Shown one piece after another: positions 5,564 to 25,132 of a DNA stretch of 30,329 bases. Numbering within the stretch: position 1 is the first letter of the stretch; each line of letters opens with the position of its first letter. The translations under genes and the position numbers were made by a program. The stretch is from a virus. Lineage: Duplodnaviria > Heunggongvirae > Uroviricota > Caudoviricetes. A model generated the notes under the pieces. That model was not told the origin of the DNA. It did not search any database and saw only the letters and a list, made by a program, of their open reading frames with translations. The DNA lies in IMG/VR virus record IMGVR_UViG_2778261591_000021. One strand, 5' to 3'.

Positions 5564-6027
5564 TATTTTCTCTCCATGTGAAATCTGTGGAAATTAAGAC
5601 CAAGAGCACCATAAGGCGCGGCTTCTTCAAGCCTGAATCCAAGCCAGTGCAGCCATGCCTTGGCAACATGGTTTCGCTCGTCGACGTAGTTTTCCAGGCG
5701 CGGATAAACTGCCAGCATCTGCTGCAATACAGGTCGGCAGTGGCGAAGAAATGTCTTCTGATATTTTTCAATACGGCTGGTTCCGACCAGCCAGGGTGTA
5801 CCATTGCCACCGATCATTGACGCCGGAGATACACCAAACATGGTTACCAGTACTCCGTTCGCGAACCCTGACCAGGCCATAGTCGCAGTGCGAAGACCAA
5901 CACGCAGCGCATCTTCGGTAGTCATCAGCGATACCGCATACAGTTCGTCAATATCAGCCTGACGAACATCCGGCAAAATCATCTGAAGATGCTCTTCGGT
6001 GGCGGGAATAATTTGAACATCGATCAT
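5563..6027 (-). CDS. virion-associated protein, 154 aa
   Basis: Lies within the coupled structural operon between the large tail protein and the core proteins (T7 gp13-like position). Confidence 0.35.
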   Translation of the reverse strand: MIDVQIIPATEEHLQMILPDVRQADIDELYAVSLMTTEDALRVGLRTATMAWSGFANGVLVTMFGVSPASMIGGNGTPWLVGTSRIEKYQKTFLRHCRPVLQQMLAVYPRLENYVDERNHVAKAWLHWLGFRLEEAAPYGALGLNFHRFHMERK

Positions 6028-8498
6028 CAGAATCCCCCAACAGTAAGGCGAGGAATAACGGCAAGAACAGACAGCGGCAACGGGTCAAGCTGACGGATTT
6101 TTACACGTCCGTTTTTGCCCCAGTTACTGTCCAGTTTCACTTCTACTTTTCCGGTAGCATCATCAACAGGATCATCGTAGAACTCGAATTCACGCTGTGG
6201 ATATTCGTACCATTTGCCGCCGGGCGTAGTCGCCCAGATGCCGCGACTGGCATTCACAACCAGAGTAACGGACGGGATCACCTGTTTTTTGTCCAGCAGC
6301 GTTTCCTGTCCGTTAATGTTGATATCCAGCGTTTCGAATTCAGCAGTTATTGGCAGGCCGATGTGCACTACAGCCCCCGGTGATTCCAGCGTGACGGCAC
6401 CTCCGGAAACCACTTTCTGTGGTTCCACGTTGGCATCAGAGAGAATATTTACGGTCTGGCCTTCAAGATGAGACAGGCCTCCAAATGTCCTGCGCGCCAT
6501 CTGCCAGTTCGTGGTGGACACATTCCTGAGGGATGGCGGGACGTTCCTGTTAGCACGAACCACTACTGCGGTATTACTGGTTACAGAAATAATGTCGCAA
6601 CGTAATTCTTTTGACACTTCATCGCCAGTATCAGGAACAGTTCCGGCATAAGGGAACTGTAGTTGCGCGCCGACATCACTACTGGTGAAGTACGCACCAC
6701 CAGAAACACTGATTGTATATTCCGCGCGATAATCCCATTCGCCAGAGCCACCAGTGATGGTCATCGTTCTGTCAGACGTATTTCTTCCATCATAGCTAAG
6801 GCCAGAATCAACAAAGAAAGCATCTTCATCGCTGGTAAATAAACGGCTGGACAGCCGCTCGATGTATCTCACTGTTTGCCCGTTAACGGTTCGGTTAACG
6901 ACGAAATACACCGCATCTTCATTGCCTTCGCTGATACTGCATGTGCTTTCATATTTTCCGGTACTGGATTGTGGTGCCCATGCAAAAACCTGCTGATCAC
7001 GCAAATAGGTCATCACCAGTAATTTACCGTCATCACGAATGCAGAAGGCGCTGGAGTAAGGGACAATAGAGAAGCACCAGTCAACAATGCTGTGCTTCTG
7101 AAAAAGATGATTGGCAAGGATGGTCAGGTCGTTCCCCTGATAGCCGTCAACATCGAATGAGTAGGCCAGATCACGGACAACACTGCCTTTCTCCTGGACG
7201 AACAGAGCAATATTCGCTACGGCAATTGGTGGGACGTTGCTTGAGCCATTTGATCCCTGAGAGCTGAATGCAAATGATGATGGGGTTAACACTTTGTTCT
7301 GGTCGCCGGTGATGACGTACTCACCTCCGGAAGTCAGCGCCACCAGAGAACCAACATCAATCAGGTGGCGGATCTCATTAACCTGACGCCCGGCATAGGT
7401 GTAGATAATTCTGTCGTCATCCTGCGTAGGATTGCTTTTGCCAAAATCCTTATAATCCCCGGTACGGCTGGCCCAGATAGTCTGAGGGAACGCAGTCGAT
7501 GCGGCGAAGTAAAGACGTTGTTGATAATAAACAACAGTGCCAGGATAACCATTAACACTGTTCCAGGCATATTTAGCCCATTTATAGCTGGCATTATCCT
7601 CGCCAACTACCTGCGAAGGGATATAGGAAATCACCTCGGCAGTTGCAGTAGTTCCATTTGCAGCAGTGATACGGGCAATGCCAAAACCACTGTGCAGATA
7701 TTCCCACTCAATGCCGGTATCATCATCACCGGATCCGCCCCAGCCATCCCATGATGTGCCTTCTGTATGCGAAGGGCGCAAAGTACCTGTTTTGCCTGCT
7801 GTAACGGCGCGATAGTAGTTACTGTCTGCACGGCGAATATCGCCAATCGACGTACTCTTACTGGTTTCCCATACCGGCACTGAATCAACTGCAGGCTGTT
7901 CCAGATAGAACAATTTGCCTACCTGCTCCGCGCCAAAAATAGAGGCGCTTGCCGTTAACGTAATTGTCCCGGTGCTGGCGCTGGCATAAACCGTCACTGA
8001 CTCGTCAATATTGATATCTTCAAATGGTCCGTTCTTCGTTACCACATCAACCAGTTGCCAGTTGTCATGCGCATAGCGACGCAACTCTTTCGGCGGGTAT
8101 GCCGGATGAACAAGCGTAAGCACGTCTGCGCTTTGCGTGAATTTAATTCGGAACAGATCGGCTTCAGTATATGGCGTGGCAATTTCATAAATAACATTGC
8201 TGCTGTTCAGCACCAACGCACCATCTTTGATAACGCGCATGTACTGGTGTCCGAACTCCAGAGCATAAGTCTGAACCGTCGAGAACTGGAACGGTATCAG
8301 GCGGCATTTCCGATTTGGGTATTTGGCGGCACCGACAAAACGCGTACCAGGTCGATTCTCAACGCCGCCATACTGCCGCACGATAAAGTTATCGCACTTG
8401 CGCAATGCTACCTGGTACTTCGCCATGTCGATACGCCCGTACAACGACGGTCCAATCTCACCACCGGCAAAGCTGGGCTGGATCCAACTGATAGCCAT
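6027..8498 (-). CDS. large tail protein, 823 aa (podovirus tail tube/hub-like)
   Basis: Beta-rich, Gly/Ser/Thr-rich sequence. Position after a 202-aa protein and before the core proteins mirrors T7 gp11/gp12 order and sizes. Confidence 0.45.
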   Translation of the reverse strand: MAISWIQPSFAGGEIGPSLYGRIDMAKYQVALRKCDNFIVRQYGGVENRPGTRFVGAAKYPNRKCRLIPFQFSTVQTYALEFGHQYMRVIKDGALVLNSSNVIYEIATPYTEADLFRIKFTQSADVLTLVHPAYPPKELRRYAHDNWQLVDVVTKNGPFEDINIDESVTVYASASTGTITLTASASIFGAEQVGKLFYLEQPAVDSVPVWETSKSTSIGDIRRADSNYYRAVTAGKTGTLRPSHTEGTSWDGWGGSGDDDTGIEWEYLHSGFGIARITAANGTTATAEVISYIPSQVVGEDNASYKWAKYAWNSVNGYPGTVVYYQQRLYFAASTAFPQTIWASRTGDYKDFGKSNPTQDDDRIIYTYAGRQVNEIRHLIDVGSLVALTSGGEYVITGDQNKVLTPSSFAFSSQGSNGSSNVPPIAVANIALFVQEKGSVVRDLAYSFDVDGYQGNDLTILANHLFQKHSIVDWCFSIVPYSSAFCIRDDGKLLVMTYLRDQQVFAWAPQSSTGKYESTCSISEGNEDAVYFVVNRTVNGQTVRYIERLSSRLFTSDEDAFFVDSGLSYDGRNTSDRTMTITGGSGEWDYRAEYTISVSGGAYFTSSDVGAQLQFPYAGTVPDTGDEVSKELRCDIISVTSNTAVVVRANRNVPPSLRNVSTTNWQMARRTFGGLSHLEGQTVNILSDANVEPQKVVSGGAVTLESPGAVVHIGLPITAEFETLDININGQETLLDKKQVIPSVTLVVNASRGIWATTPGGKWYEYPQREFEFYDDPVDDATGKVEVKLDSNWGKNGRVKIRQLDPLPLSVLAVIPRLTVGGF

Positions 8499-9106
8499 CA
8501 GGACAACCTCGCAATGGTAAACTCGTCAACCGGTGGCTGTGGTTCCTGTGATTCATTCTGGCTATGCGAACCAGCACTAAGAATCACGCGATTGTACATA
8601 TTGAGAGCAAATGTACCGAGATCCGCATTCCCAGTCAGCGCCATGTTAATGGCTGCCGCAAGACGCCAGGCCAGCGCCTCCATAAAAATGGCATCAAACA
8701 TGTTCACATCTGAAACGCGAGAGACATACTTGAGCCATGCCTGCGGCTGGTCTGTATAGATCAATTTTCCTGTTCCGTTGGTGTCTGCACCAACTTCGTA
8801 CTGAACGCGCATTGCTGCTGTTGGATTGCGTACACCAGGAAGCATAATTTCAGTAATGCGCAGACAATCGGACGGGTACTGGTACGCATATTCCCAGTCA
8901 GGCGGTGGATTGCTCGTATCTGCAAGCGCCACGCGTTTGGTAGCAAAGTTCCAGTCAAAATCAGAAAGCACAGCATCACGGCAGGCCTCAAAGTGCAGCG
9001 AACATTCCCCCGCTTCCTTGCTGGCTTCCGTCAGGCTGTTAATGCTGCGGCTATTGCCAATATTGGACAGCGCACGATTACAGATCTCTACTACAGAGGC
9101 CATCAC
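8498..9106 (-). CDS. tail adaptor / tail tubular protein A-like, 202 aa
   Basis: Gene order and size; start overlaps the stop of the upstream gene. Confidence 0.4.
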   Translation of the reverse strand: MMASVVEICNRALSNIGNSRSINSLTEASKEAGECSLHFEACRDAVLSDFDWNFATKRVALADTSNPPPDWEYAYQYPSDCLRITEIMLPGVRNPTAAMRVQYEVGADTNGTGKLIYTDQPQAWLKYVSRVSDVNMFDAIFMEALAWRLAAAINMALTGNADLGTFALNMYNRVILSAGSHSQNESQEPQPPVDEFTIARLS

Positions 9107-13997: not shown

Positions 13998-14204
13998 TTA
14001 CTGACCAAGCAGCGTTTTACCGCTGGTATTAGCGGTTGATGTGTCGCCCTGAGAACCGGTAAGCAGCGTAGAACTACGACCAGCAGCAGCGCGACGGCGA
14101 CGAGTTTCTTCGTCGCGGGCATCAACAACGGCGGCATCCTGCTCCTGTGGTGCTGCCTGAACTTCTGGTGTTGCAGGCACTGATGGTGAGCTACCCATGC
14201 ACAT
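13998..14204 (-). CDS. small hypothetical protein, 68 aa
   Basis: ATG with GGAG 10 nt upstream; first gene of the structural operon after the accessory island. Low-complexity sequence. Confidence 0.3.
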   Translation of the reverse strand: MCMGSSPSVPATPEVQAAPQEQDAAVVDARDEETRRRRAAAGRSSTLLTGSQGDTSTANTSGKTLLGQ

Positions 14205-14272
14205 ATCAATGACTCCGTACGCAATTAAATTATTACCAATTTAACCACATATGATTTATTTATCGTAGATAG

Positions 14273-14309
14273 TTGACATTTAACGCACAAATTATTACCT
14301 TTCAGGTAA
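14273..14309 (+). promoter_or_regulatory. promoter-like TTGACA followed by a TTACC-N5-GGTAA operator-like palindrome
   Basis: TTGACA at 14273-14278; TTACCTTTCAGGTAA at 14295-14309. Same layout as the early promoter at 25090-25132. Points toward the structured region and tRNA. Confidence 0.45.
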
Positions 14310-14329
14310 CCAAAGAGTTCATTCCGGTT

Positions 14330-14631
14330 ACTAACCTGACTGGCTTGTCGTTAAATTGAACAGGTGGAGTGAGCTTTTATTTTGAGCAGTACGGCGTATG
14401 GCACATGCGCCGATAGCGGTCTGGATACGTTTAAGGGGCACCCTCCCTTGCTCGGGCAAACGAACCAGGTAGCCGGAATGTGCAAGTCGAGCGGTTTTAT
14501 TCCGCGCACGGGGATTCACCATCCCGGCGATTCGGTGTGACGCCTCGGAAGAGACGAGGGTACAACGATGAGAGCATTTATGGAGCCGCGACAAAGTGTG
14601 GCGCCTTAACAGGCTAAGTGCTCTCAGCGTT
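14330..14631 (+). other. GC-rich, hairpin-dense non-coding region upstream of the tRNA (candidate structured RNA or tRNA leader)
   Basis: No convincing ORF on either strand. Multiple perfect local hairpins, for example CCTCG-gaagaga-CGAGG and CGGAAT...ATTCCG. Lies between a promoter and the tRNA. Confidence 0.25.
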
Positions 14632-14708
14632 GTGGCATTAGCTCAGTTGGACAGAGCAACCGCCTTCTAAGCGGTTGGTCGCAGGTTCGAATCCTGCATG
14701 CCACGCCA
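14632..14708 (+). tRNA. tRNA-Arg (anticodon TCT, reads AGA)
   Basis: Full cloverleaf: 7-bp acceptor stem GTGGCAT/ATGCCAC, D-arm GCTC/GAGC, anticodon stem ACCGC/GCGGT with loop CTTCTAA, T-arm GCAGG-TTCGAAT-CCTGC, discriminator G and encoded CCA. Resembles but is not identical to an enterobacterial argU-type tRNA as recalled from memory. Confidence 0.85.
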
Positions 14709-14751
14709 GAATCACGCCTAAGGACCGTGATGCCAGAAGTTCCAGGGGCTT

Positions 14752-14795
14752 GGCGGTGATGGTTTCCCTTGAAGGACTATCACCGCCCTTTTTAC
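14752..14795 (+). terminator. rho-independent terminator downstream of the tRNA
   Basis: GGCGGTGAT...ATCACCGCC stem followed by CTTTTTA. Confidence 0.55.
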
Positions 14796-14870
14796 AGCAG
14801 GACGCCATTGCGATGACTTCATGCTGTAAACCAGTACAGCCACGGAAGGCATAACTCATTGCTTCCAGTT

Positions 14871-14896
14871 CGCCCGGTTCGCCGGGCATTTTTTTG
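14871..14896 (+). terminator. rho-independent terminator
   Basis: GCCCGG-ttcg-CCGGGC stem followed by ATTTTTTT. Confidence 0.65.
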
Positions 14897-14900
14897 ATTG

Positions 14901-14929
14901 ATGACCGCAAATTACCTTAAAGGTATAAT
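14901..14929 (+). promoter_or_regulatory. promoter-like element with a perfect -10 TATAAT (14924-14929) overlapped by an operator-like palindrome
   Basis: Palindrome TTACCTTAAAGGTAT at 14912-14926; a possible -35 ATGACC lies 17 bp upstream of the -10. Sits immediately before the moron ORF. Confidence 0.4.
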
Positions 14930-14930
14930 C

Positions 14931-15749
14931 ATGAAAAACTTCAAGGTAATTAGCATGTTTGAATCGTTCAAAGAGCTGTTTTTATCTACTGCCAATACTG
15001 CCGTGAATCGAGCCAAAAACCCTGTGCTTGGTGCTTTTGTTATGTCCTGGTGCGCCTTCAACTGGAAATCAATTCTTTATCTATTTTTTAGCAAATCAAA
15101 CATAATAGATAAAATTTCATATATCTCAGATAACAGCACATGGAAAACTGTTATGTTTTATCCATGCTTATCTGTAATTGCTATCTGCTGCCTATTACCA
15201 TGGGTAAACAATATCATTAACGTATGGCAAGCAAAGCCTCTTGATAATAATGACTCAATCGAAAATCACCTGAAGGCAAGAAAAATCCAGCGTGAAACAA
15301 GACTGCAGAGGTTATTGGCTAAAAAAGATGTTACATACGACAAAGTTAAGACTGGCGCGGAAAAAGACATCCAAGAGATGAAAGAAGAGATTATTCGATC
15401 AAAGAATAGTATGGGGGAATTGACTGCCGAGTTGAAAGCTAAAGATGACGAATTGAGATCCGCCAGTGCACAGTTAGCAGCTCTAAATCATTCATTAAAA
15501 GAGATATCGGAAACTCTTGGAAGAATGAATGAGGCATATAAGACCCTCCAAAATGATTTCGACGAATACAAACTCAAATACCCTGAAAAATCTCAAATAA
15601 AAAGCCTTGCACTTGGCAACGGCCAAACAATTAGCAACGTTTTGGAGCAACACAACTTATCCGGATTAAAATCTGGTAAGCCAAACGTTTTTAATAACTT
15701 TGGTGTTCTATCTGGATTATCAGGTTTCGAGGATAAAAATAAAGACTAA
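14931..15749 (+). CDS. AT-rich accessory (moron) protein, 272 aa: two predicted TM helices plus a long coiled-coil domain; function unknown
   Basis: Opposite strand to all flanking structural genes and visibly AT-rich relative to them. ATG at 14931 has AAAGG upstream; the track ORF starts at TTG 14898. Hydrophobic segments are VLGAFVMSWCAFNWKSILYLFF and VMFYPCLSVIAICCLLPWV; heptad-like charged region from about residue 100 to 220. Confidence 0.6.
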   Translation: MKNFKVISMFESFKELFLSTANTAVNRAKNPVLGAFVMSWCAFNWKSILYLFFSKSNIIDKISYISDNSTWKTVMFYPCLSVIAICCLLPWVNNIINVWQAKPLDNNDSIENHLKARKIQRETRLQRLLAKKDVTYDKVKTGAEKDIQEMKEEIIRSKNSMGELTAELKAKDDELRSASAQLAALNHSLKEISETLGRMNEAYKTLQNDFDEYKLKYPEKSQIKSLALGNGQTISNVLEQHNLSGLKSGKPNVFNNFGVLSGLSGFEDKNKD

Positions 15750-17221
15750 GCATATGGATCGTACTCGGTAAGCGCCTTGCCTTGCTGGTTCTGCTGCCCG
15801 GGAAGTCGCAGGCGCTTTGACACCGGGAAAGCAAACGTCAGCAGTAGCGCATCGCCTTTACCAGGCGAACGCCCAAGTCGTTCTTTGATATCTTCCTTCG
15901 GTTCGATAACGATTTTACCGTCCACGCGAACTTTGTACTCTGCCGCCGACAGATCGTCCGCTGTTTCCTGGTCATCCAGCATCCCGCCCAACCTCAGCCA
16001 TGTCTTGCATGAGTTGAACATCTCCCCGCGCTTGTTAAGCATCTGCGGGTCAGTGGACGCACCGCCGAACGGAACAAGTTGCCATGTACGCCCCCAGCCA
16101 TCACCGATTGACTTCAAACCGGTTCCGTAACCGAAGTCGATGAACACCGCGTCAGCCTGATACTGGTCTTCAAAGTCAGCGATACGCTTCGCCATAATCA
16201 GATCGTCGGTAGTCTTGTTGCCAGTCCATAGCACCTTACTATGCAACCCCTGCCGCAGGTATATCACCGCGTCATCAACGCCTGAATATGCCGGGTCAAC
16301 ACCGATTATCACCGGAGCATGTGCCACCTGCGCAGCGGTTACCACCCGTTTCATTGCCTCATCAGTAAGACCGGTAGGGATAAACTGCAATTCAGATGCA
16401 TCAGGGAATATGCCGCGCACACGGATTTTAACGAAGTCGCTGTCTTCCCCGTAGTCATCAACCCATTTCTGCAACTGCTGTTTGTTAGTACCTTCCACCG
16501 TCCGGCTGTCAATCTGCGCAGTTTTCCAGCGGTGTTTGTATTTGCGGAAACATTCGCGAAAACGCCCGGTATTACGTGTAGGGTTTCCGAACGCCACCCA
16601 GATAATCTCAGTGTCTTCGTCCGTAAGCGCACCCTCAGCAACTTCCCACACCAGATCCGCAATGTTCGACGCTTCATCGAATACCACGATGATGCGTTTG
16701 CGCTCGTTGTGTAGTCCGGCGAATGCCTCAGTGTTGTGCTCAGACCAGGGGATTGCGTCAGCTCGCCACCGCTTGTCGTGCCCAGGATCATTGCTGTACA
16801 TCGCAGTAGCGGTACAGGTAAACCAGTCTTTCGTGATAGCAAGGTTCGACCACTTGATAATTTCCGGCCAGGTCTTCGTTCGTAGCTGGTTGTCGGTGTT
16901 GGCGGTCACCACGACCTTACAATCCTCGCAAGTGGACATGCCCCAGTTGATCAGCATTGAGATGAATGCGGATTTACCAATACCATGACCAGAAGCGCGT
17001 GCCAGCATAAGCGGCTGATAGCGCGTCTCTGGATTCTGCAGGTGATCACGTATCTCTCGGAACGCATCAGCCTGCCACTGACGTGGGCCGGTAGCATGTG
17101 CCAGTTCAGTCCCCTCTTCCCCCCACGGGAACGCATATAGGGCATAGCCAAGCGGATCGTGAGTGAACCCTGCAATATCCTCGATCAACTGCTCTTCAGG
17201 AGATAACGCTGTATCTGTCAC
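15746..17221 (-). CDS. terminase large subunit, 491 aa
   Basis: Walker A-like GHGIGKS, ATPase and nuclease acidic blocks (VVFDEAS, GVDPAYSG), and position after the small subunit with overlapping stop/start. Confidence 0.9.
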   Translation of the reverse strand: MTDTALSPEEQLIEDIAGFTHDPLGYALYAFPWGEEGTELAHATGPRQWQADAFREIRDHLQNPETRYQPLMLARASGHGIGKSAFISMLINWGMSTCEDCKVVVTANTDNQLRTKTWPEIIKWSNLAITKDWFTCTATAMYSNDPGHDKRWRADAIPWSEHNTEAFAGLHNERKRIIVVFDEASNIADLVWEVAEGALTDEDTEIIWVAFGNPTRNTGRFRECFRKYKHRWKTAQIDSRTVEGTNKQQLQKWVDDYGEDSDFVKIRVRGIFPDASELQFIPTGLTDEAMKRVVTAAQVAHAPVIIGVDPAYSGVDDAVIYLRQGLHSKVLWTGNKTTDDLIMAKRIADFEDQYQADAVFIDFGYGTGLKSIGDGWGRTWQLVPFGGASTDPQMLNKRGEMFNSCKTWLRLGGMLDDQETADDLSAAEYKVRVDGKIVIEPKEDIKERLGRSPGKGDALLLTFAFPVSKRLRLPGQQNQQGKALTEYDPYA

Positions 17222-17814
17222 TGATTACCATCCTGACGTTCTTTGAGTCGCTTCCTGGCTGCTGCTATGCGATCAGCAATTGTCACATTCACATTAACAT
17301 CCAGACGTTCTTTGAACGCGTTGACATCAACATGCTTACCAATCAGCTCAAGGTTCTTCACCTTGTCAGGCCATTTAATTTTTTTGAGGATTGTCTCTAT
17401 CGAATCCTCGTTCATGTTCATGATGGTCGATGACAGATCAAAGCCACTAAGCGTAGTGCGCCAGATTTTCGGCCACTCACGGATTGGTTTAAGGCTCCCA
17501 TCGTCGTTGAGGATGTCGATCACGTCCATCTGGTCGATCTCCACCAGGCGCATGAGAACGTAATCAGCACTGACGCGCATTCGTTTGTTGCGCTCCTCCA
17601 TCAACTCGGCAATCCGTTTTTGAATGCGTTCATCGCGCATCATGACACTGGCTTTAACTGCCGCTGTATTTGGGGAGAATCCTGCGTTAATCGCTGCCTG
17701 AGTCTGGTTTTCAGGCGTTTTGATGTATGACTGGCAATAAGCCTCCTGCATTGCTGTTAGTGGCTTAAATTGCGTTGATTTGCGTTTATAGGTTTTAGGT
17801 TCAGCAGGCATCAT
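17218..17814 (-). CDS. terminase small subunit
   Basis: Terminase small-subunit-like sequence with a basic helical C-terminus. Start re-assigned to the ATG at 17814, because the track's TTG-initiated extension to 17892 contains a terminator hairpin. Confidence 0.75.
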   Translation of the reverse strand: MMPAEPKTYKRKSTQFKPLTAMQEAYCQSYIKTPENQTQAAINAGFSPNTAAVKASVMMRDERIQKRIAELMEERNKRMRVSADYVLMRLVEIDQMDVIDILNDDGSLKPIREWPKIWRTTLSGFDLSSTIMNMNEDSIETILKKIKWPDKVKNLELIGKHVDVNAFKERLDVNVNVTIADRIAAARKRLKERQDGNQ

Positions 17815-17821
17815 AACCACC

Positions 17822-17853
17822 GTGGTAATAGTTACCGTTGTGGTAATAGTACC
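17822..17853. repeat. two direct repeats GTGGTAATAGT(T)ACC just upstream of the terminase small-subunit start
   Basis: Copies at 17822-17836 and 17840-17853. Each contains everted GGTAA/TTACC half-sites related to the operator palindrome. Confidence 0.5.
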
Positions 17854-21950: not shown

Positions 21951-22027
21951 TTACCCCTGAGGTAATTAAAAACCACATAAGACACGAAATCAATAGATTT
22001 TAGTATATTTTATTACCCGCCAGGTAA
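21951..22027 (-). promoter_or_regulatory. internal promoter (TTGATT-N17-TTTAAT on the minus strand) flanked by two TTACC-N5-GGTAA operator-like palindromes
   Basis: Sites at 21951-21965 (overlaps the start region and RBS of the DUF1064 gene) and 22013-22027 (upstream of the -35). Confidence 0.45.
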
Positions 22028-23958: not shown

Positions 23959-23973
23959 TTACCTTTGAGGTAC
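23959..23973. promoter_or_regulatory. operator-like palindrome TTACCTTTGAGGTAC
   Basis: Lies between the cro-like gene terminator and the Zn-finger gene. Confidence 0.4.
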
Positions 23974-24295: not shown

Positions 24296-24358
24296 TCACC
24301 CATAAGGTAACAAAAATCAAGGATAGTTACCTGTGGGGTGCATTTACCTGTTGGGTAA
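24296..24358. promoter_or_regulatory. immunity-region operator cluster: three TTACC-N5-GGTAA-type sites between the divergent cro-like and repressor-like genes
   Basis: TCACCCATAAGGTAA at 24296-24310, TTACCTGTGGGGTGC at 24327-24341, TTACCTGTTGGGTAA at 24344-24358. Confidence 0.55.
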
Positions 24359-24413: not shown

Positions 24414-24998
24414 ATGAAAAGTATCCAGGACGTCCGCAGGCAAAATCTCAACGACTTGATCGACCGTGAATTCAATGGTGTTCAGACGCGGATGGCAGAA
24501 AAACTTGGAACTCAGGCAAATCTGGTAAACCGCTGGGCTCTTGGCAAGAAGGTTATCGGCGACCAGGTTGCGCGAAAAATTGAAGCTGCCGCCAATAAAC
24601 CCCGTAACTGGCTTGATATCGATCGCTCGCTTTCTCAGGAAGGTTTTCAGCCTGTCGGCCCAAGCGACATTGGTCAGCTGGCGGCTCACAACCTGGAACG
24701 CTGGATGAGCGAAAGCCGCGACCTTTCAACGCAGGGAAAACTTCACCGCGCATCCGGCGTCGCCCAGGTGACAATCAGTCGCCTGTTAAACAATGAGGTC
24801 AGCGTTTCCATTTCCACCCTGGAGAATGTTGCATCCGCATTCGGGCGTCACGGATATGAACTACTGATTCACCCGCACGACCCTGCGACTATCAACTATG
24901 ACCGCTCACGCTACGCATTGTTACCCGAAACCGAGAAAGCAAAGATCGAAAGTTACATTGAATTTGTCATCAACCAGAACGAAAAAAGCAAACAATAA
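24414..24998 (+). CDS. repressor-like protein with two tandem XRE-type HTH domains and no LexA/S24 peptidase domain, 194 aa
   Basis: HTH 1: TRMAEKLGTQANLVNRWALGKK. HTH 2: KLHRASGVAQVTISRLLNNEVSVSISTLENVASAFG. Occupies the cI position and is followed by its own terminator. Confidence 0.6.
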   Translation: MKSIQDVRRQNLNDLIDREFNGVQTRMAEKLGTQANLVNRWALGKKVIGDQVARKIEAAANKPRNWLDIDRSLSQEGFQPVGPSDIGQLAAHNLERWMSESRDLSTQGKLHRASGVAQVTISRLLNNEVSVSISTLENVASAFGRHGYELLIHPHDPATINYDRSRYALLPETEKAKIESYIEFVINQNEKSKQ

Positions 24999-25055: not shown

Positions 25056-25132
25056 TTACCTTACGGGTAATTTTTTTAACTCATATCTATTGACACCAAA
25101 CCAAATAAGCATAATTATTACCTCAACGGTAA
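25056..25132 (+). promoter_or_regulatory. early-left-type promoter (TTGACA at 25090-25095) bracketed by two operator palindromes
   Basis: TTACCTTACGGGTAA at 25056-25070 and TTACCTCAACGGTAA at 25118-25132; the downstream site overlaps the -10 and transcription start region. Confidence 0.55.

Follow-up and report, generated by a model that had tools for sequence, protein, structure and literature searches.

The question raised by the stretch of DNA considered here is what a lone, AT-rich gene contributes to a prophage in which it lies between a tRNA gene and the large terminase gene. The stretch (IMG/VR virus record IMGVR_UViG_2778261591_000021; 30,329 nucleotides), referred to throughout as the window, is a phiV10/epsilon15-like (Uetakevirus) prophage of Escherichia coli; a near-identical region in E. 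coli TCM3e1 adjoins guaA and carries annotated integrase, repressor, replication, terminase, portal, capsid, and tail genes. The gene in question, hereafter the cargo gene, encodes WP_000787773.1, which is annotated as a 'hypothetical protein', and no paper on WP_000787773 or on its protein family, phrog_4780, was found in the literature; a transcriptome study of LF82 prophages was set aside as a source, since Gally is P22/HK620-like rather than a Uetakevirus. An initial annotation had proposed a superinfection-exclusion (Sie) or abortive-infection (Abi) function. The feature is real and well delimited: it represents a cargo family that is widespread but uncharacterized, its architecture is distinctive, and its promoter bears an operator. 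The initial description holds apart from minor corrections, and the proposed function is a reasonable and plausible guess. The locus comprises the following features (residues in 264-amino acid numbering):

14632-14708, plus strand: tRNA-Arg(UCU), left landmark of the variable slot
14872-14894, plus strand: GC hairpin with T-run, resembling an intrinsic terminator, left edge of the cargo
14901-14929, plus strand: σ70-type promoter
14912-14926, no strand assigned: palindromic operator TTACCTTAAAGGTAT, core TACC-N5-GGTA, overlapping the promoter spacer and −10 element
14943-14947, plus strand: Shine-Dalgarno sequence AAGGT
14955-15749, plus strand: most likely form of the cargo coding sequence, 264 codons plus stop, phrog_4780, with a start shared by homologues and under purifying selection
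15021-15089, plus strand: first hydrophobic segment, residues 23-45, kinked and of marginal hydrophobicity
15147-15227, plus strand: second, strongly hydrophobic transmembrane segment (TM2), residues 65-91, running unbroken into the stalk helix
15228-15434, plus strand: conserved proximal stalk, residues 92-160, with 79% mean identity in 70 homologues
15435-15746, plus strand: hypervariable distal coiled coil (residues 161-208) and disordered Gly/Ser/Asn-rich tail (residues 209-264)
15746-17221, minus strand: large terminase (TerL), right landmark of the slot

The deviant composition reported for this AT-rich reading frame was borne out: the G+C content of the gene is 0.369, compared with 0.49 for the window and 0.54 for TerL (0.37 vs. 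0.59 at third codon positions), making it the lowest-GC 795-bp stretch in the whole 30 kb; the commonest residues of the protein are L (11%), K (10.6%), S (9.1%), and N (8.7%). AGA or AGG accounts for 5 of its 8 Arg codons, and the neighboring phage tRNA-Arg(UCU) decodes the AGA ones. The gene had been described as encoding 272 amino acids, and an open reading frame of that length does extend from ATG 14931 to 15749; the product, however, is probably the 264-residue form that begins at ATG 14955. In all 26 aligned homologues the first residue corresponds to M9 of the longer form (ATG 14955), and ATG 14931 exists only in the cargo's own allele lineage, other alleles reading AATCAGAAAAAA in its place, so 264 residues is the likely length of the product. 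Moreover, ATG 14931 sits 1 nt past the −10 element and thus would lie outside any mRNA made from the cargo promoter. The Shine-Dalgarno sequence is located 8 nt before ATG 14955, and AAAGG or AAGAG occupies the equivalent place in other alleles.

The protein matches phrog_4780 over its full length (E 9.2e-137; residues 9-272 of the 272-residue form on profile positions 1-267 of 275), and phrog_13369 and phrog_35327 are related (E 1e-19 to 1e-21). There are 177 close homologues in Enterobacteriaceae, none of them named, and a search of 1.8 billion cluster representatives returned 288 clusters (50% identity) at E<=1e-10, every one of which has the N-terminal module from residue 1. Mean conservation is distributed unevenly: in a set of 70 homologues, residues 1-160 match the window protein at 60-79% identity, residues 161-208 at 31%, and the tail at 23%. 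Over the first 160 codons the nonsynonymous divergence (dN) is 0.15-0.3 and the synonymous divergence (dS) is saturated (dN/dS 0.07 where computable), which marks a family conserved by more than chance; by these measures strong purifying selection acts on the membrane module and the proximal stalk, whereas the tip appears free, or driven, to change. Truncated copies also occur, namely a 163-residue E. coli allele (P0026; 29 member sequences) and an N-terminal fragment of ~100 residues, cut by IS1, at 6001-6309 of locus L086 and on ~20 large Klebsiella plasmids; these recurring truncations may hint at a cost of the intact gene.

Beyond this family, the statement in the initial annotation that the protein could not be placed in any family by eye was supported by searches of Pfam, NCBIfam, PADLOC, and PDB. 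Pfam gave 24 families at E<=1, all coiled-coil and far under the cut-offs, with no Sie, Abi, Rex, Imm, or holin match; NCBIfam gave only sub-threshold coiled-coil matches; and in PADLOC-DB v2.0.0 the best match was DndD (E 3.5e-4; 17.7 bits), every match falling in SMC-like coiled-coil segments. The best E value in a profile search of PDB sequences was 0.024, BFVD held no relative beyond generic helices, and a scan of genome contigs yielded no confirmed relative. A Pfam scan of 10 long relatives and 132 family members was uninformative except for one GerE helix-turn-helix (HTH; see below). Homology to a structural, lysis, or housekeeping protein, named beforehand as the finding that would count against the proposed function, was searched for and not found, and lysis and structural families (holin, spanin, tape-measure, capsid) gave no significant match in Pfam or PHROG.

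A −10 TATAAT overlapped by an operator-like palindrome had been noted immediately upstream, and this arrangement is present, the palindrome reading TACCTTAAAGGTA. The predicted promoter consists of a −35 ATGACC (14901-06), a 17-bp spacer, and the −10 TATAAT (14924-29); it has 10/12 consensus matches and is the best promoter-like site within 14200-16000, with a predicted transcription start site near 14936. The palindrome (TACCTT-A-AAGGTA, 14913-14925) shares 2 nt with the −10 element and is centered near −17. The whole block, in the order −35 rTGACy, five variable bases, palindrome, TAnAAT, A-rich start region, and Shine-Dalgarno sequence, accompanies the gene everywhere except in the most distant contexts and is nearly constant between alleles whose third codon positions are just 47-72% identical. 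A 16-nt inverted repeat (14907-22/14939-54) that could sequester the Shine-Dalgarno sequence is specific to the cargo's own allele lineage and unconserved, and it was set aside.

The left edge of the cargo is a terminator-like hairpin (14872-14894). Other cargos of the slot start right after this hairpin and T-run (GGGCATTTTTTTAAGGTGAGATTATG) with no promoter, and phrog_4780 alone brings one; the promoter-less sibling cargos seem dependent on upstream read-through or antitermination. The first terminator-like hairpin after tRNA-Arg is at 14752-14787. At the other end, the cargo gene and TerL converge, and their stop codons share 4 nt (15746-15749). There is no terminator directly 3′ of the cargo, the nearest weak candidate (15867-15883) lying inside TerL; cargo transcripts would run on into the terminase gene from its 3′ side, in antisense.

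The palindrome over the cargo −10 element has, by its sequence, the motif found at the repressor/Cro operators of the prophage itself. The window contains 9 perfect TACC-N5-GGTA cores, compared with 0.2 expected, and no shuffled sequence reached 9. The other sites, and the probable binder of the motif, are as follows (no strand assigned except for the repressor gene):

14295-14309: operator between the portal-side genes and tRNA-Arg, syntenic in all Uetakevirus loci examined
17814-17846: two operators side by side, immediately before the start of the small terminase, syntenic in other Uetakeviruses
21951-22027: second operator pair, 62 bp apart, at a minus-strand middle promoter upstream of a 117-residue gene
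23959-23973: single operator
24296-24358: operators between cro and cI, one matching TTACC-N5-GGTAA perfectly (24344-58) and two matching imperfectly
24414-24998, plus strand: prophage repressor, a 194-residue HTH protein 99.5% identical to the ZX5 repressor (ORF21)
25056-25132: operator pair, 62 bp apart, on either side of a TTGACA promoter that lies shortly past the 3′ end of the repressor gene

The same motif is found at syntenic sites in E. coli, Klebsiella, and more distant Uetakeviruses, one of which has a repressor only 46% identical; no published mapping of Uetakevirus TTACC-N5-GGTAA operators was found in the literature. The 194-residue repressor is the likely binder of the motif, and a protein bound at the cargo operator should, from its position, block RNA polymerase. 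Overexpression of the ZX5 repressor reduced endolysin and holin transcription by ~99.9% (PMC9782041). Because the palindrome matches the prophage operator, cargo expression is probably tied to the lysis-lysogeny switch, that is, gated by repressor and Cro rather than simply constitutive, and the cargo may be repressed in the lysogen and expressed during infection or induction. In most alleles one flanking base is off consensus, with GGTAT, GGTAG, or GGTAC standing in for GGTAA. The palindrome is also retained in prophages whose immunity region is without the motif (L011), and in which the hairpin that adjoins it in the Uetakevirus slot has decayed; this retention suggests a second binder or recent constraint. 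In a divergent Uetakevirus (L015, 8949-8965), AACC-N9-GGTT replaces the operator in the promoter region of the family member, and the usual operator occurs elsewhere in that phage. The palindrome also resembles what we take to be the MqsA-type motif, ACCT-N3-AGGT, a likeness that was not relied on and that Klebsiella alleles (ACCA...CGGT) do not fit. Upstream of the tRNA, a possible plus-strand promoter (14273-14301; perfect TTGACA, 17 bp, TACCTT) is overlapped by the operator at 14295-14309 and could drive the tRNA-Arg unit under repressor control; its spacing is not kept in L015.

The architecture of the protein is predicted with good confidence. An AlphaFold2 model built on a deeper alignment has a mean predicted local distance difference test score (pLDDT) of 84 and supersedes an earlier run on a shallow alignment, which gave 65. 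Its N-terminal part comprises a helix at residues 2-20, a hydrophobic helix with a kink between its two parts (23-35 and 37-45), and a short helix in the loop (50-60); a single uninterrupted helix of ~146 residues (63-208) then carries TM2 into the stalk, and the tail (209-264) is predicted to be disordered (pLDDT <50). The two N-terminal transmembrane helices of the initial annotation therefore differ in standing: TM2 is strong (Kyte-Doolittle 2.15) and is the sole strong transmembrane segment of the two, whereas the first is only marginal (1.23) and contains an invariant Lys. That first segment carries the family's most conserved residues (P23, W32, N36, W37, and K38), and across 132 diverse members R19, P23, W32, N36, W37, P70, and P82, in and around both hydrophobic helices, are near-invariant. 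The long coiled coil that had been described corresponds to the ~146-residue helix, with heptad character cleanest over ~141-196; the Gly/Ser/Asn-rich tail is real.

Family proteins range from 220 to 514 residues, and stalk length varies widely. Lys and Arg are richer in the N-terminal and post-TM2 segments than in the intervening loop. One distant, metagenomic member (P0204; 238 residues) has a C-terminal LuxR-type HTH (GerE, E 4e-10) in place of the variable tip and is thus a membrane-tethered DNA-binding variant of the family. Since this domain must be cytoplasmic, and given the charge distribution, the stalk and tip are most likely cytoplasmic. The cargo product is predicted to be an inner-membrane protein with a cytoplasmic N-terminus, a prediction that the modeled helices fit. 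A periplasm-spanning stalk was judged less likely on the basis of the C-terminal DNA-binding domain in one relative, the charge distribution, and the widely varying stalk length.

On both sides of the slot the window is 96-99% identical to phiV10, ZX5, TL-2011b, and others, in which the cargo is missing or replaced. Slot contents were resolved in 57 IMG/VR contigs with TerL >=99% identical, and the interval between TerL and the tRNA holds at least 8 alternative contents among them, including the following:

gp49/66 family (PF13876; also in phiV10): 22 contigs
139-residue protein (phrog_4846): 12 contigs
cargo gene of the WP_000787773 type: 10 contigs
empty: 4 contigs
110-residue protein (phrog_27507): 4 contigs
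61-residue protein: 2 contigs
Tad2-like anti-Thoeris protein (PF11195, E 3e-24): 2 contigs plus 1 fusion

The tRNA-Arg/TerL junction (14709-15745) is a cargo hotspot that holds anti-defense genes. Among 5426 complete E. coli genomes, the tRNA region is present in 503 and the cargo allele in 37-56. Anciently diverged phrog_4780 alleles share this one slot in phages whose terminases are 92-99% identical, which indicates allele replacement by recombination. By presence/absence polymorphism, possession of its own promoter, and deviant composition the gene resembles a moron, although it lacks a downstream terminator of its own, and by this distribution it is a horizontally mobile accessory gene.

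Outside the Uetakevirus slot, the family has members in lambdoid nin-type regions, where they stand alone on the opposite strand (KO-TP1 and one Klebsiella prophage), on an SSU5-like phage-plasmid, on a metagenomic phage contig, and, as P0194, between gpA and gpQ of a Pantoea P2-like prophage, an interval described in P2 as a defense hotspot by Rousset et al. (PMC9122126). Members on Klebsiella plasmids directly follow a DUF1778/GNAT toxin-antitoxin pair and, in pM186-2, stand beside an operon of the cyclic-oligonucleotide-based antiphage signaling system (CBASS). The gene is on the strand opposite to its phage neighbors in all phage and prophage contexts examined. Taken as sequence neighborhoods, these contexts support a role in conflict between mobile elements and hosts, on either side. 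The P2-like prophage L013 has six tandem CTCTTGA repeats upstream of its family member (8840-8885), which repeat a −35-like TTGAC, as well as a NACHT NTPase beside the CI repressor and a RelA/SpoT-domain gene after gpS. NZ_CP079771.1 (pHL15EC-2; 41 kb) is on record as an E. coli 'plasmid' that is not mobilizable, but it resembles a circular Uetakevirus genome; it carries the gene (WP_000787772.1).

Comparison with known systems places P22 SieA and SNIPE/PD-lambda-1 as the nearest functional analogues, and when membership in each was tested the cargo was found to fall in neither. Like the cargo, SieA is encoded by one small gene that lies in the late region of a temperate podovirus and has its own promoter, is an integral inner-membrane protein without an enzymatic domain (as is predicted for the cargo product), and exists as several highly divergent sequence types (PMC10883804); it blocks the DNA-delivery conduit (PMC10883804). 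However, SieA is 162-164 residues long with three predicted transmembrane segments and no long stalk, it shares no sequence or profile similarity with the cargo (no Sie-annotated PHROG or Pfam family was matched at E<=1), and it is expressed from the prophage, whereas the cargo promoter carries a repressor-type operator. SNIPE, a membrane-bound nuclease with DUF4041 and GIY-YIG domains, meets injection proteins at the membrane (bioRxiv 10.1101/2025.11.03.685801; PMC9519451). The cargo would share with it the single-gene organization, an N-terminal inner-membrane anchor, an elongated helical cytoplasmic body, and diversified regions, which in SNIPE are thought to bind phage injection proteins. 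In contrast to SNIPE, the cargo is without DUF4041 or GIY-YIG (Pfam), and its PADLOC PD-Lambda-1 match (E 0.0013; 15.6 bits) covers helix only; SNIPE has one transmembrane segment with the N-terminus outside, whereas two hydrophobic helices and an internal N-terminus are predicted for the cargo family, together with a membrane module that is strongly conserved.

Other systems are less close. P0194 occupies exactly the gpA-gpQ position of the P2 cargos old and tin (PMC9122126) and shares their swappable single-locus logic, but the family has no old, tin, or HEC/Rst homology (PADLOC), and the window copy resides in another phage type and slot. Transmembrane Abi effectors (lambda RexB and those of CBASS and Pycsar) are likewise small membrane proteins of mobile elements, and the conserved module of the cargo could oligomerize and depolarize the membrane; those effectors act with a separate sensor or signal, whereas the cargo is lone and partnerless and has no homology to them. 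The P22 immI region (ant/arc/mnt) is a repressor-controlled accessory unit in the late region with its own dedicated repressors. The cargo is similar in being a counter-oriented, putatively operator-controlled accessory unit among late genes, but it differs in that its operator is the main immunity-region motif and its product is a predicted membrane protein rather than an antirepressor.

Taken together, context and evolutionary pattern point tentatively to an exclusion or Abi-type role, which we regard as possible and prefer without strong conviction. The cargo is a self-contained promoter-gene cassette, a mobile, moron-like phrog_4780 element, and would act as a single-protein factor in conflicts between mobile elements. 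Its kinked first helix and strong TM2 would form a membrane module, from which TM2 would extend as a rigid cytoplasmic helix (a coiled-coil stalk of ~117 residues) ending in a fast-evolving tip and disordered tail. The conserved membrane module and proximal stalk would serve as anchor or effector. Through its variable cytoplasmic tip the protein would engage some component of an incoming or competing phage, so that genome entry or establishment is blocked at the inner membrane or the infection is aborted by membrane damage. The initial proposal keeps its footing in a mobile gene that encodes a predicted membrane coiled-coil protein and is found in conflict contexts, and several observations weigh against it. 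The protein resembles no known Sie, Abi, or defense family (Pfam, PADLOC, NCBIfam) and has no enzymatic or recognizable sensor domain; its first hydrophobic helix is marginal, so its topology is a prediction; the defense and anti-defense neighborhoods are sampled contexts and amount to guilt by association; a Tad2-like anti-defense gene fills the same slot in a sibling phage; and an operator over the −10 element argues for an off state in the lysogen, which is atypical of prophage-borne defense. A simple lysogen-expressed defense is made less certain by this regulatory evidence.

The same regulatory evidence makes a serious rival, if a somewhat unlikely one, of a lytic-phase accessory gene that is repressed in the lysogen and turned on at infection or induction, where it could serve lytic-phase exclusion, envelope takeover, or counter-defense. 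The genus-wide operator that overlies the cargo −10 element is also found at cro/cI, the early-left promoter, the middle promoter, and upstream of the small terminase, the flanking tRNA-Arg unit is downstream of another operator, and some siblings carry the Tad2-like anti-Thoeris gene (PF11195) in this slot; furthermore, the cargo converges on TerL without a terminator, so late transcription could switch it off. Such a role fits poorly with distant relatives on conjugative or non-phage plasmids, which stand beside CBASS and a toxin-antitoxin pair and have no lytic cycle, or with the promoter block and palindrome kept in L011-type prophages whose immunity region is without the operator; most alleles' operators are off consensus at a flanking base, so repression is perhaps partial, and to our knowledge membrane proteins are rare among anti-defense factors. 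It is quite unlikely that the gene is instead a lysogenic-conversion factor outside phage conflict, contributing to the envelope, stress, colonization, division, or membrane organization through a tethered coiled coil. In its favor, the gene is AT-rich and horizontally acquired, has a promoter of its own, encodes a product predicted to lie in the membrane, and has its allele in E. coli genomes from varied sources. Against it, a hypervariable tip and the coexistence of ancient alleles at a single slot form an arms-race pattern, the contexts are defense and anti-defense hotspots, and there is no adhesin, transporter, or division-protein similarity beyond coiled-coil noise. ZX5 lysogeny altered no tested host phenotype (PMC9782041); ZX5 carries a different cargo, and the result is uninformative for the window cargo.

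A structural, lysis, or housekeeping protein (holin, spanin, scaffold, or tape-measure-like) or a non-coding artifact is extremely improbable. The two-transmembrane topology is superficially like that of class II holins, and weak PHROG tape-measure and head matches (E 0.005-0.4) fall in the helical region, but the gene is absent from most otherwise near-identical phages and is therefore not essential, it is on the strand opposite to the late operon, and no lysis or structural family is matched significantly; strong purifying selection shows that it is protein coding. A structural or lysis role is essentially excluded by the presence/absence polymorphism. A further reading is improbable but worth stating, in which the family would be a new type of single-protein, enzyme-free immunity or exclusion module, with a conserved membrane 'warhead' and rigid stalk steered by an exchangeable cytoplasmic tip and expressed from an operator-gated promoter. 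Balancing selection would keep many ancient alleles in the population, and in Uetakevirus lysogens the gene would fire on loss or titration of the repressor (by an invader's antirepressor or on induction), acting as a dead-man switch or a lytic-phase exclusion device; conservation of the palindrome in unrelated prophages would point to a further regulator.

The cargo gene thus makes a good subject for experiments and is not yet a demonstrated system. The family ranges over phages, phage-plasmids, and plasmids of Enterobacteriaceae, and metagenomic contigs hold more distant relatives; if its members are exclusion, Abi, or counter-defense factors, they would constitute a widespread single-gene system that no current defense-finder model detects, with an unusual and tractable architecture of conserved membrane module, stalk, and exchangeable tip. 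For the Uetakeviruses themselves, the analysis indicates that one operator motif is used at many promoters genome-wide, and the tRNA-Arg/terminase junction is useful for mining further conflict genes.

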